Below are positions 745 to 58,374 of a stretch of 64,000 nucleotides of DNA, piece by piece. The notes below the pieces were generated by a model, which had not been told where the DNA came from, did no database searches, and saw only the letters and a program-made list of their open reading frames with translations. Source of the DNA: a virus (Duplodnaviria > Caudoviricetes); IMG/VR virus record IMGVR_UViG_3300045970_000924, positions 1,749-65,748 of that record. One strand, 5' to 3'. The position numbers and the translations under genes are program-made. Positions within the stretch are counted from its first letter, which is position 1. The number at the start of each line of letters is the position of its first letter.

Positions 745-1062
745 GGGGATGACTGGTTTCGACGAGGGCAGTGAGCAGTACGCAGCGCGCCCCGGGTCGC
801 TCGGGACCGGGTCAACAAACCGAGCACCGCACAAAAGCCAACGACAACGTCGTTTCGCTCAAGTCGTACCGCAGCACCCGCATGGTGAAGCCCAGCGGCG
901 TCGTTCGCAGCAACGCGTTCCAGCTCGCGGCAGCCTAGCTGGATGGTGGAGGCGGCTCTGGCCGCCCCGTAGTGCCCAGCCCGCGGGGTTCGCGGGACAC
1001 GCGCGTAGACCCGTACCGCAAGCAGCTTTCGGACGGCGGTTCGAATCCGCCCATCTCCACCA
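745..1062 (+). ncRNA. ssrA: tmRNA (transfer-messenger RNA), complete and phage-encoded
   Basis: 5' GGGGATG pairs with 3' CATCTCC, including the G3:U alanine identity pair, then discriminator A and CCA (1060-1062). T-arm GGCGGTTCGAATCCGCC. Tag frame 837-938 starts ANDN and ends LAAA-stop. Confidence 0.95.
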
Positions 1063-55258: not shown

Positions 55259-55828
55259 GCGCGCTCTCCGCTCTCGCCTGCGCGCACCTCCGCGCCGCGG
55301 GGATGCTCGACGCTGCAGACCTCGCCGAAGAGCAGGCGTGGGCGCACGCGCTGGAGTGCCCGCCCCGCGAGTCCAACGCCATCGCTCGGCTCGTCGCAAT
55401 CGCTCGCGTGGAGACGCTCTGCACGCATGCCGAGTCCCTCCGCATCCTGGCGGCTGGACTGCTGGAGGTCCCCAATGGTTAGCGAGGCCCTGCTGCAGCG
55501 GCTCACGCTGGTAGCGACCCAGGAGGCCGAGGCAGAGCGCGGCCCGGTGGACTGCCTCGCGGGGCACCAGTCGTTCGGCGTGCCGGGCACCGCCTGCACC
55601 TGCGGGCTCACGCGGCTGCCGCCGAGCACCGCGTATTACTTCAACGCCGTCTTTTTCTGCGGTGTCGAGCGGCGCCGGAAGGCGGGGCTCTGATGGCGTG
55701 CACTCGAACCCTCCGTAGTTCTCAAGTCGCCGCCAGAGGAGAAGCGGCTCTCGCGCGGGGTGCCTCTTTCGGCCGTTCTGAGACCTGCGTCGGCATCCGC
55801 CGCGGGCTCGCGCTGTACGGAGCCCTCC

Positions 55829-56434
55829 ATGCGTAAGCGCTTCCGTGCCTCCGCCATCGCCAAGCCCCGCTCCAAGCGGCGCGCCCGCGGGGCCTACTTC
55901 ACCCCTGATGCGCTGGCCGCCGCGATCTGCCGCTCTCTCGCTGACGAGATCGGCGCGCCTCGCGACGTCCTCGAGCCCGGCTGTGGCGGCGGCGCCTTCT
56001 TGCGCGCCGCCCGCGCGGTGTGGCCCGGCGTGGATCTCGATGGCGTGGATCTCGTGCCGAAGTGCGAAGGGCCGGGCGCCATCTGGCCCGGGAGCATCTT
56101 CGACCTCTGCGAAGGGAAGCTGCGCGCCGAAGACGGCTGGGCGTTGATCGTCGGCAACCCCGACTTCTTGCACGCCGAGAAGATCGTGCGGCACTGCCTC
56201 TCGCTGCTCGCGCCGGGCGGTCACCTGGCCTTCCTTCTTCCGCTCTCGTTTGCAGCGAGCAAGCAGCGTCGGGCGCTATTCGTCACCTATCCCTGCCGGT
56301 ATCAGCAGCCTATCGCGGGCCGCCCGGCGTTCATCGGCAAGACCACCGGCTCCCAGGAGTACGGCCTCTTTGTCTGGAGGCAGGGCTTCAAGGGCCGCGG
56401 GCAGATCCTTCCTCCGCTGGAGTGGAAGCCATGA
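55829..56434 (+). CDS. Amino-(N6A/N4C)-type DNA methyltransferase, variant motif IV NPDF
   Basis: YFTP, VLEPGCGGGAF, IVGNPDF, AFLLPLSF, RPAF...EYGLFVW. Confidence 0.8.
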   Translation: MRKRFRASAIAKPRSKRRARGAYFTPDALAAAICRSLADEIGAPRDVLEPGCGGGAFLRAARAVWPGVDLDGVDLVPKCEGPGAIWPGSIFDLCEGKLRAEDGWALIVGNPDFLHAEKIVRHCLSLLAPGGHLAFLLPLSFAASKQRRALFVTYPCRYQQPIAGRPAFIGKTTGSQEYGLFVWRQGFKGRGQILPPLEWKP

Positions 56435-56805
56435 GCACCAAGAACGCGACGCACTGCAAGCGCGGCCACGAGTGGGCGGTCTACGGGAAGCTCGGGAGCC
56501 AGGGCTACCGGGTCTGCGGGAAGTGCAAGGCCGAAGGGATGAAGCGCTGGCGGTCTGAGCAGGGAGACGACCGCGCGGTGATCCGGGCTCAGGCGAGGAT
56601 GATGCGGATCATCCTTCACGAGTGCGGCTACTCGTGGGCGACCGCTGGGCAGTTCCGAATCGACCTTCGCGAGACGACGATCCATGAGCGCAGCGCTCCG
56701 GCCACTGGAGCAGCTCGACGCGACTTCAACCGCTGCCCGGCAAAGCGCTCCACCACCATCTCGATCGCGGACCACGCGGTCGCTCGCCTTAATGAGGCCG
56801 CCTGA
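56431..56805 (+). CDS. Hypothetical zinc-finger protein
   Basis: THCKRGH...RVCGKC; coupled. Confidence 0.55.
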   Translation: MSTKNATHCKRGHEWAVYGKLGSQGYRVCGKCKAEGMKRWRSEQGDDRAVIRAQARMMRIILHECGYSWATAGQFRIDLRETTIHERSAPATGAARRDFNRCPAKRSTTISIADHAVARLNEAA

Positions 56806-58374
56806 TGGGCCTCCGGTTCGGCAGCGTATGCAGTGGTATCGAGGCCGCCAGCGTGGCCTGGTCTCCGCTTGGATGGGAGGCCGCGTGGCTCGCGGAGATC
56901 GAACCGTTTCCCTCTCGGGTGCTCGCGCACCACTACCCCGAGGTGCCGAATCTCGGCGACATGACCACCATCGCCGCGCGCATCCTCGCGGGTGAGGTGG
57001 AGGCGCCCGACCTGCTCTGCGGCGGCACCCCTTGTCAGTCCTTTTCCGTCGCCGGGCTCCGCAAGGGGCTCGCAGACGAGCGCGGCAACCTCGCGCTCGA
57101 GTTCGTGAGGCTCGCAGATGCCATCGACCAGAAGCGCAGCGACCCAGCTTGGATTCTTTGGGAGAACGTCCCCGGAGTCCTCTCCAGCGCCGAGGGTCGC
57201 GACTTCGGATGCCTCTTGGCGGGCCTGGTCGGAGAGGATGCCCCACTCCTTCCGCCACGGGATGGGTGGACGGACGCGGGTGTGGTTGCTGGACCAACGC
57301 GAGTCGCTGCGTGGCGCATCCTCGATGCCCAATACTTCGGAGTGGCCCAGCGCCGCCGACGTGTCTTTGTGCTCGCTCGCGGAGGTGCTGGAGGTTGGGC
57401 CGCACCTGACGCGCTACTGCCTATCGGCCCGCGCCTGTCTCGGAATCCTCCGACGCGCGCAGAAGCGCGGCAAGGAGCTGCCCGAGGCGCTGCGGAACGC
57501 GCTGGAAGCGGCATCGAGGGGCTAGCGCATTCCCTGCGGGCGCGGGCGAACAGCGCGCACCGCGAGGATGCGGAGACTTACGTCCCTTGCATTTCTCCTG
57601 CGCTCAAGGCGCGCGACTGCAAGGGGCCATCAAGCGACGGCGACGGCGACGGCGCGACGCTCGTCGCTCAGCTCGTCAGCGGCAACCAAGGGGGGGGGGC
57701 AACCGTAGTTGGCTCGGCATCGAAGAGCCGCACCAGACCCTCACTCGCAACCACAAGCCCAACGCCATCGTCGCGCTGCCCGGAGATCGGGGGCGGCTTT
57801 GACGAACCGCTCGCCATCCAGGGCACGATGATCGGGCGCGGCGATACCGCGGGGCCGCAGGGCATGGGCGTGGGCGTGGGCGTGGGCGTGGGCGTTCAGT
57901 TCACACTCACAAAGACGGACGTTCACGCGGTGCTCGCCTTCGACCCACGCCAGGTCACCAGCAAGACCAACCGCAGCAATCCGCAGCCCGGTGACCCTGC
58001 GCCCACGCTTGCGACTACCCCCCCCCCTGATCGGGGGTTTCTTTGACGCTGCGCCTACGGCGTTCCATCTCACGCAAGACCCCATCTCTGAGACGGGGGG
58101 GGGCACGCCTGCGATGTCGGCGGGGAACCGGCAGGGCTGCGCAACGCTCGGAGTGATGCACCCCGGAGGCGGCTTTGACGCCCCTGCGGCGGCGGTCAGG
58201 CGGCTGACTCCCCGCGAGTGCGAGCGCCTTCAGGCGTTCCCCGACGATTACACGCTGATACCCGGCGCTGCGGATGGTCCGCGATACCGGGCGCTCGGCA
58301 ACTCGATGGCGGTGGTGGTTATGGCCTGGATTGGTCGGCGTATCGCTGCGGTCATCGCCTCGGAGGTCAAATGA
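56805..58374 (+). CDS. C5-cytosine DNA methyltransferase with modular TRDs; full length needs a +1 frame change at about 58041-58047
   Basis: Motifs I (SVCSGIEA), IV (GGTPCQSFS), VI (WENVPG) and VIII (QRRRRVF) lie in 56805..58046. Motifs IX/X (RRLTPRECERLQAFPDDYT, RYRALGNS) lie in the +1 frame ending 58374. Confidence 0.9.
57118..57525 (+). CDS. Overlapping +1-frame ORF resembling the M.EcoHK31I beta polypeptide N-terminal region
   Basis: GAGG 5' of ATG; SEWPSAADVSLCSLAEVLE...YCLSARACLGILRRAQKRGKELP; wholly nested in the MTase gene. Confidence 0.7.
   Translation: MPSTRSAATQLGFFGRTSPESSPAPRVATSDASWRAWSERMPHSFRHGMGGRTRVWLLDQRESLRGASSMPNTSEWPSAADVSLCSLAEVLEVGPHLTRYCLSARACLGILRRAQKRGKELPEALRNALEAASRG
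57789..57803 (+). other. prfB-type +1 frameshift cassette 1
   Basis: GGGGG CGG CTT TGA C. Confidence 0.75.
58033..58047 (+). other. prfB-type +1 frameshift cassette 2 (needed in the current allele)
   Basis: GGGGG TTT CTT TGA C; this TGA ends the 56805 ORF, and +1 leads into the motif IX/X frame. Confidence 0.8.
58165..58179 (+). other. prfB-type +1 frameshift cassette 3
   Basis: GGAGG CGG CTT TGA C. Confidence 0.75.

Follow-up and report, generated by a model that had tools for sequence, protein, structure and literature searches.

A C5-Cytosine Methylase Gene in Two Reading Frames

The window analyzed here is a stretch of 64,000 nucleotides (69% G+C) and forms part of the 65,748-base virus record IMGVR_UViG_3300045970_000924 (Duplodnaviria; Caudoviricetes), for which completeness is estimated at 73%. 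It carries, in a single copy, a gene predicted to be an orphan C5-cytosine DNA methylase of this 65.7-kb virus record, which is assembled in two overlapping reading frames (Table 1). The first of these frames ends, shortly after a run of ten C, at a TGA embedded in what resembles the +1 frameshift site of prfB, the gene of release factor 2 (RF2), and it is the origin and the possible use of this stop that we consider here.

Regarding the 5′ open reading frame (ORF), it matches PF00145 (E 2.5e-28; best stretch, profile positions 2-123) and the DNA methyltransferase family phrog_116 (3.1e-62), and 8000 homologues of it were scored. The N-terminal catalytic part including the Pro-Cys motif is present, and GGTPCQSFS, ENVPG and QRRRRVF are all read in frame 0, the frame of this ORF. 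The 3′ ORF covers positions 268-322 of the 324 in the PF00145 profile (E 2.4e-10) and includes RRLTPRECERLQAFPDDYT and GNSMAV; in its frame the related proteins P0121 and P0123 are 90% and 85% identical. A first-pass annotation of this DNA had claimed that the ORF beginning at 56805 stops exactly at the TGA of the shift-like site and that motifs IX-X follow in the +1 frame, and both the position of the stop and the profile match of the +1 frame bear this out. The record's own gene calls are these same two ORFs, namely P0001 for the 5′ part and P0122 for the 3′ part (86 amino acids (aa), from ATG 58114). As assembled, motifs IX-X are hence separate from the 5′ polypeptide, and a single chain needs either a four-letter step during translation or a C run shorter by one base (C9).

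Table 1. Features of the predicted methylase gene, in window coordinates; frame 0 is the frame of the 5′ ORF and frame 1 the +1 frame.
Feature	Position	Strand	Remarks
Predicted C5-cytosine DNA methylase, 5′ ORF, frame 0	56805..58046	+	From the ORF list; 413 aa; motifs I-VIII and most of the variable (target-recognition) region; ends at the TGA of cassette B (58044-58046)
G10 run	57690..57699	+	One more G would take frame 0 into module c (frame 2)
Module c	57700..57802	+	Native frame 2 (GNRSWLGIEEPHQTLTRNHKPNAIVALPGDRGRL, then stop); the assembled allele reads frame 0, 33 out-of-frame codons
Cassette A: GGGGG CGG CTT TGA C	57789..57803	+	TGA in frame 2 (frame of module c); assembled frame 0 reads GGGFD
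Hexamer repeat GGGCGT x6	57860..57895	+	In frame; Gly-Val repeats
+1-frame continuation: last variable-region module and motifs IX-X	57991..58374	+	ORF listed from GTG 57991; final stop 58372-58374
C10 run	58018..58027	+	Junction of frame 0 and frame +1, from the sequence
Cassette B: GGGGG TTT CTT TGA C	58033..58047	+	prfB-type shifty stop in frame 0; frame +1 gives the codons of GGFFD
G9 run	58095..58103	+	In frame as assembled (ETGGGT); with an added G, frame 0 is open as far as the cassette C TGA
Cassette C: GGAGG CGG CTT TGA C	58165..58179	+	TGA in frame 0; GGGFD in the assembled frame +1; linker in frame in P0121 and P0123

Homopolymer Runs and the Frame Map of the Variable Region

The runs G10, C10 and G9 are the only homopolymers of at least 7 nucleotides (nt) in the 64 kb, and all of them lie within 414 nt of the methylase variable region. 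Elsewhere the window shuns homopolymers, with 12 runs of at least 6 against 55.9 expected and none of at least 7 outside the methylase gene, while dinucleotide-preserving shuffles of the window held 15.1 runs of at least 7 and 1.1 of at least 9. Long homopolymers that lie inside an ORF and set its frame, a feature of repeat-mediated phase-variable genes, are found at this locus (G10, C10 and G9; enriched relative to the shuffles). The same region holds, besides the GGGCGT repeat, a second in-frame hexamer repeat at 57634-57654 (+), in which 3.5 copies of GCGACG encode Asp-Gly repeats.

Two frame maps of the region were drawn, one from the G/C content of third codon positions and the other from the match to P0002, the closest relative. 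By third-position G/C, frame 0 leads until about 57700, frame 2 from 57705 to 57765, frame 0 once more until about 57975, and frame 1 thereafter. P0002 matches frame 0 (residues 3-273, 73%), frame 2 (its last 36 residues, 86%) and, further on, frame 0 again. The two maps agree, and it follows that, once past G10, the assembled ORF takes 33 codons of module c in the wrong frame. Indeed, in frame 2 this module shares 31 of 36 residues (86%) with the end of P0002 and has a third-position G/C of 0.85, as against 0.60-0.70 in frame 0. The state of the G run differs between the two genes: P0002 reads QLVSGNQGGGGNRSW straight through it (GGGG) into module c, whereas the G10 of the window leaves the module out of frame.

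Simple arithmetic on run length gives the alternatives. G11 would read module c properly and then stop at cassette A; C9 joins the two frames of the gene (...TTPPLIGGFFDAAPTAFH...), and C11 gives CCC TGA directly after the run. Around G9, P0121 and P0123 read ISETGGGTPAMS in frame. Each of the three cassettes follows a run, at 97, 13 and 69 nt after G10, C10 and G9, respectively, and each TGA stands in the frame that a one-base gain in the run would reach. This threefold arrangement of tract and cassette, like the out-of-frame stretch of 33 codons after G10, goes beyond what the first-pass annotation had pointed out.

prfB-Like Cassettes and the Linker Peptide Behind Them

The conserved elements of prfB sites, which are described as almost universal, are a Shine-Dalgarno-like run near AGGGGG, a slippery CTTT three bases downstream, TGA and a following C (PMC12421855). 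Every one of these sequence elements, including the 3-nt spacer, is present at 58033-58047, where the C10 run is followed by TG ATC, GGGGG (58033-58037), TTT, CTT (58041-58043), TGA (58044-58046) and C (58047); the stop lies in the incoming frame and the +1 frame is open. When CTT-T at 58041-58044 was taken as one four-letter step, a translation begun at 57165, and not at 56805, stayed open to the natural stop at 58372-58374. The four-letter code is unusable on the whole gene because, from 56805, it also shifts at an in-frame CTT-T in motif VI (57156-57159). The pattern GGRGG-NNN-CTTTGAC occurs three times in the window (57789, 58033 and 58165), always on the + strand within the methylase gene, with 0.02 occurrences expected and none of 100 shuffles reaching three. 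These three copies are not independent, since each consists of the codons of one repeated peptide, GG(G/F)FD. RNA folding around the three cassettes was no better than in shuffles (z-scores of -0.05, 0.26 and 0.27). The exact cassette pattern GATCGGGGGNNNCTTTGAC had 17 matching stretches in viral contigs, none of them in a context like the methylase gene, and a limited literature search returned no report of a prfB-like site in a methylase.

The downstream frames of the three copies encode IGGGFDEP, IGGFFDAAP and PGGGFDAP, and a linker of this type, GG.FD(A/E), is translated in frame in P0121 (twice), P0123, P0153 and P0230 and in the first copy of P0002. Its context is LIPTGGCFDALAFDPQQ in P0153 and LIPVGGGFDAVAFHNRQDP in P0230, the latter reading IPVGGGFDAVAFHNRQDP, which is the same kind of junction as at cassette B. 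Third codon positions suit the linker as well: G or C ends 5 of 7 codons in the linker frame of cassette B and 2 of 7 in its TGA frame, and 6 of 7 against 3 of 7 in the linker and stop frames of cassette A. Full-length relatives of the 3′ part read HPLA.GAHPPAIAFHLTQDP, without a linker at that junction, and among the longer proteins searched with the 3′ ORF (best matches 54-62% identical) no full-length form with a linker at the cassette B junction was found. The variable region presents itself as a mosaic in which Gly-Gly-x-Phe-Asp linkers connect one short module to the next, and the TGA at 58044-58046 appears as the out-of-frame reading of the Phe-Asp codons (TTT GAC) of such a linker; the three cassette copies may be paralogous. 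Most likely, the stop arose incidentally in a switchable gene prone to slippage and was not built for regulation.

Related Methylase Loci

A survey of relatives started from 190 loci, from which 4 without the N-terminal domain, 16 without a nearby C-terminal domain and 13 duplicates were removed, leaving 157 distinct genes. A single open frame was found in 147 of them, and three more (L123, L128 and L204) had been flagged only because the alignment overshot the natural stop, which brings the uninterrupted genes to 150 of 157; the seven disrupted ones are L104, L105, L124, L150, L188, L198 and L200. GGRGG-NNN-CTTTGAC is absent from all 157. Runs of at least 8 occur in six relatives, of which five are intact genes with G8 in the variable region (L024, L082, L089, L118 and L171), and the sixth, L198, a distant relative on a contig of a Clostridia metagenome-assembled genome, has G10 at gene nt 336 with a frame change between the end domains. 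G runs derived from poly-Gly codons therefore recur in this methylase family. Two of the disrupted relatives, L105 (gene nt 1405, CRIP-stop-KKKKAED) and L150 (nt 703, ITGGA-stop-KNGG), carry one in-frame TGA each and are otherwise open; neither TGA follows CTT.

The closest relative is also cut short. P0002 ends in KPNAIVSLPGDRGLL and a stop where frame 2 of the window reads KPNAIVALPGDRGRL and a stop, its terminal PGDRGLL coming after the module that is 86% identical to window frame 2. P0178, a 78-aa C-terminal methylase fragment, and P0002 are each recorded on a 4654-base contig, from which we infer that the P0002 gene is probably split like that of the window. The block made of the G run, module c and the cassette sits after different modules in the two genes. 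Further searches added little to these cases: neither module c nor the linker was found in a methylase frame in any of 167 loci; degenerate DNA patterns for module c and FHLTQDPISETGGG had no match in viral contigs; a nucleotide search with 57560-58200 returned nothing in phage or plasmid records; and only more distant relatives came from protein searches of metagenome and viral contigs (query P0002) and of genome contigs (query 3′ ORF).

Interpretation of the Broken Frame

The reading that we prefer, and to which we give about an even chance, is that of a slippage-prone (phase-variable) methylase caught in an out-of-frame allele, with a probable low-level, RF2-sensitive +1 rescue arising as a side effect of the linker codons. 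Slippage would be the source of the variants, the G/C runs gaining or losing bases so that the gene would exist as a set of length variants. The assembled allele (G10, C10, G9) would have one C too many, and ordinary decoding would end at the TGA at 58044-58046, giving a 413-aa product without motifs IX-X that is predicted to be inactive alone; C9 would restore a single frame, and presumably an active enzyme, while C11 would stop translation immediately. The Gly codons of the linker (GGGGG), which stand three bases before CTT TGA C, would make the out-of-frame allele display a full prfB +1 site, at which a minority of ribosomes would probably slip +1 and complete the enzyme, in a leak that would compete with RF2. 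Should ribosomes shift at cassette B, sensitivity to RF2 would therefore be expected by the known prfB mechanism, as described in PMC12421855. The junction peptides expected of the two routes differ, with DRGFL-DAAPTAFH for a +1 shift and PPLIGGFFDAAP for a C9 template or transcript slippage.

Variation in run length was sought in four sequencing runs, which were compared as assembled contigs, a form of data that drops rare variants. In X3, a run from another study, a 151-nt contig of depth 2 that covers 57959-58103 has, apart from one other difference, one C fewer, which corresponds to the in-frame C9. In X1, the likely source run, the same three run lengths, G10, C10 and G9, recur in an independent contig set with a depth near 13, whose contigs are interrupted at 57854-57902, at the GGGCGT hexamer repeat.

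Several observations weigh against slippage with an incidental stop. The X1 contigs, within the limits of assembled data, show G10, C10 and G9 only, and the evidence for C9 is that single short contig at depth 2, for which a read error is possible. In the window and in P0002 alike, module c equals the catalytic domain in its degree of conservation, and yet no route other than a +1 shift at the cassette connects it to motifs IX-X. P0002 is 73% identical over 285 N-terminal residues, and across such a divergence a break that arose by accident would not be expected to survive, short of a recent exchange of the block. The two close relatives that came to light are both disrupted, a state that decay would explain as well. 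Moreover, GGRGG and TTT GAC are retained in every cassette copy; TTT accounts for 5.6% of the Phe codons elsewhere in the window but for 6 of 15 in the methylase gene, and some nucleotide-level selection may act on the cassettes. For P0002 there is an alternative, namely that the block of G run, module c and cassette was exchanged recently together with its defect, the G10 of the window being a compensating slip.

A rival explanation is programmed +1 frameshifting, which we consider doubtful but well worth weighing. In this explanation, GAT CGG GGG NNN CTT TGA C would be a portable recoding cassette travelling with variable-region modules. Ribosomes would pause at the weak TGA-C, GGGGG would pair with the tail of the 16S rRNA and Leu-tRNA would slip from CTT to TTT, a course of events that we rate as unlikely; unlikely to the same degree is the corollary that competition with RF2 would set the full-length yield and that the G/C runs would pick the cassettes met in the stop frame. 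Taken further, it would make GATCGGGGG-NNN-CTTTGAC a mobile prfB-type +1 recoding cassette that moves with target-recognition modules among phage C5 methylases and the first such site outside release factor 2, which we put forward with the same doubt; in that scheme, held equally doubtful, a G/C run with its cassette could form a three-state switch (in frame, RF2-gated, off). The complete set of conserved prfB elements, their threefold occurrence against the 0.02 expected, and the position of each copy 13-97 nt after a long run, with its TGA in the one-base-gain frame, all speak for it. The two GATC-type copies lie exactly where the best coding frame moves +1 (2 to 0 near 57800; 0 to 1 near 58030), P0002 ends at the same cassette after the same module and has its counterpart in the C-terminal fragment P0178, and P0121 is called as starting exactly at the linker. 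In addition, every copy uses TTT and GGR codons, which are rare here.

On the other side, the linker is plainly translated in frame at at least five other places, third positions in both GATC-type cassettes suit the linker frame and not the stop frame, and the motif is missing from the surveyed relatives, nearly all of which are uninterrupted. Cassette A is bypassed by a G run one base shorter, which resembles compensation and not reliance on shifting, and run X3 holds the C9 contig. The proposal is also without precedent, as the +1 sites with CUU before the stop are all prfB in the RECODE data as presented in PMC10885494. Finally, according to the portion of PMC12421855 that deals with such genomes, those of high G+C often do without this frameshift, and in Mycobacterium smegmatis the motif led to shifting at a level of about 6%; given the 69% G+C of the window, this weakens the case for a strong RF2 dial. 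Such a dial had been the central claim of the first-pass annotation, with C9 making the full-length methylase constitutive, C10 placing it under RF2 and C11 switching it off. Its sequence logic stands, since C9 is in frame, C10 stops at full prfB determinants and C11 stops at once; that the site is used or selected for this purpose is not supported, in view of the linker being read in frame in relatives, the codon third positions, the 150 of 157 relatives without a shift and the C9 contig in another sample.

It is rather improbable, in our view, that the gene is dead or its frames an artefact, that is, that the methylase is decaying or that the lengths of G/C runs were miscalled in a 13x metagenome assembly, with a stop devoid of function. 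Long G/C runs are error-prone in short reads, the depth here is just about 13, three changes of native frame fall within 340 nt (one at G10, one near 57785, one at C10), and P0002 is truncated too. Against this explanation, the independent X1 contig set gives the same G10, C10 and G9, no stop or other damage is found inside any module in its own frame, and both end domains score well against PF00145. The methylase ATG overlaps the stop of the preceding ORF (TGATG, 56803-56807) and its final stop overlaps the ATG of the next one (ATGA, 58371-58374), as in a working operon, and the confinement of long runs to the methylase gene is unlike random decay.

The least plausible explanation, and a very unlikely one, is a two-polypeptide methylase as in M.AquI, in which the 413-aa chain would be joined, with no frameshift, by a separately initiated C-terminal chain carrying motifs IX-X (e.g., the 86 aa from ATG 58114): M.AquI and M.EcoHK31I are natural two-chain C5 methylases and other split C5 fragments are described as complementing each other if cut in the variable region (PMC3404938), the record's gene calls are exactly these ORFs, and the G9 run, 10 nt before ATG 58114, could act as a ribosome-binding site, but a start at 58114 drops AFHLTQDPISETGGGTPA, half of a module conserved in full-length relatives, no start codon adjoins the TGA, the same source describes M.SssI complementation as failing for distal variable-region cuts (PMC3404938), and 150 of the 157 relatives are single chains.

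A Conserved ORF Embedded in the Methylase Gene

The stretch that encodes motifs VI-VIII of the methylase also holds, in the +1 frame, an ORF of 135 aa at 57118-57525 (+), which is enclosed entirely by the methylase gene. Over 57195-57495, third-position G/C is 0.75-0.90 in its frame, as against 0.50-0.70 in the methylase frame. Of 165 distinct related loci, whose G+C ranges from 39 to 70%, 145 carry its peptide (CSLS.VLE.G.IP.R.FLS..AC.GILRRAEKRGK.LP..L..AL) in an open +1 frame, the median open length being 154 codons. When 139 distinct segments were compared over a fixed stretch of 46 codons, the pairwise identity averaged 0.705 for the +1 frame and 0.522 for the methylase frame. The first of these values is inflated, since the stretch had been anchored on a +1-frame motif. 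This does not affect the pattern over codon positions, where the nucleotide identity of the stretch is 0.76 at the first, 0.77 at the second and 0.61 at the third position of +1-frame codons. An ATG lies 85-125 codons upstream of the core in 132 of 142 distinct embedded ORFs, at exactly 102 codons in 77 of them, and 86 begin with MQ.

A search of 1.84 billion representatives with the embedded ORF returned 2826 proteins at E of 0.001 or less. In several long proteins among them (P0357, P0361, P0365 and P0382), the embedded domain is N-terminal and is followed in frame by a C-terminal PF00145 part; in P0357 and P0382 it continues, as an in-frame fusion, into the variable region and motifs IX-X. 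The embedded ORF had no match among Pfam or PHROG families, its structure model is confident for the last two helices only (mean predicted local distance difference test score (pLDDT) of 67), and a limited literature search returned no report of an ORF embedded in this C5 methylase family. Its pattern of conservation marks 57118-57525 as a real, strongly conserved overlapping gene, which is probably more interesting than the shifty stop. From the in-frame CTT-T at 57156-57159 (+) in motif VI (ILWENV), a +1 step leads directly into the embedded ORF (AWIL/GRTSPESS); this site is probably incidental because the embedded ORF has its own ATG.

Other Features of the Window

Two genes upstream of the methylase, an ORF at 55760-56434 (+) resembles an amino-methyltransferase by eye, with a GCGGG...GNPDF pattern. 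At the other end of the window, a complete transfer-messenger RNA (tmRNA) gene lies at 745-1062 (+); it matches RF00023 over model positions 1-374 with 76.6 bits, and ARAGORN agrees, with an unusually long tag peptide. Its location near the start of the virus record could reflect host flank at a prophage attachment site or a phage-borne gene.

Significance and Comparison with Known Systems

If the runs do switch the gene, the locus would be a contingency locus in a phage anti-restriction or epigenetic gene, with its switches placed in the target-reading part, and would bear on how phages hedge against host restriction. If ribosomes do shift at the cassette, a prfB-type site would for the first time be known from a gene other than prfB, as a compact and portable element that ties phage output to the termination capacity of the host, and if in addition the cassette is mobile, the three switches would let a phage population vary the amount of methylase as well as its module make-up, and hence perhaps its specificity. 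If neither is true, the locus would stand as a warning that a repeated peptide linker read out of frame can perfectly mimic a textbook recoding signal.

As in M.AquI and M.EcoHK31I, as far as these enzymes are described in PMC3404938, the coding region is interrupted within the variable region, after motif VIII and before motif IX, and its second part is in another frame than the first. Unlike in these two enzymes, no start of a second chain is evident at the break, a conserved module is cut and nearly all relatives are single chains. Shifty-stop +1 frameshifts are known from phage structural genes, for example in Listeria phage PSA, where the sites are conserved and set a fixed ratio between two structural proteins. 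The methylase resembles these sites in being a phage gene with a stop after a slippery codon and a predicted continuation of the product in the +1 frame.

With the prfB site, cassette B shares the Shine-Dalgarno-like purine run (GGGGG/GGAGG in the cassettes), the three-base spacing, CTTT, an RF2-read TGA, the following C and an open +1 frame. It differs from it in belonging to a methylase gene and not to prfB, hence without an autoregulatory loop, and in being a translated linker read out of frame, which is exposed in one length state of an adjacent homopolymer and is found in none of the 157 relatives.

Phase-variable DNA methyltransferases switched by simple sequence repeats are well known, e.g., those with poly-G tracts in Campylobacter, Neisseria and Helicobacter; a limited literature search returned no report of a repeat-switched phage C5 methylase. 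As in these systems, long G/C runs lie inside the coding region of the methylase, their length sets the frame and their states appear to differ among related sequences. The present case departs from them in that the carrier is a high-GC phage and not a host-adapted pathogen, that the enzyme is an orphan C5 methylase and that reversible switching is here a proposal. It is also distinguished by the presence of three runs and a hexamer repeat in the target-recognition region, and by a shifty stop that follows each run in the frame reached by the gain of one base.

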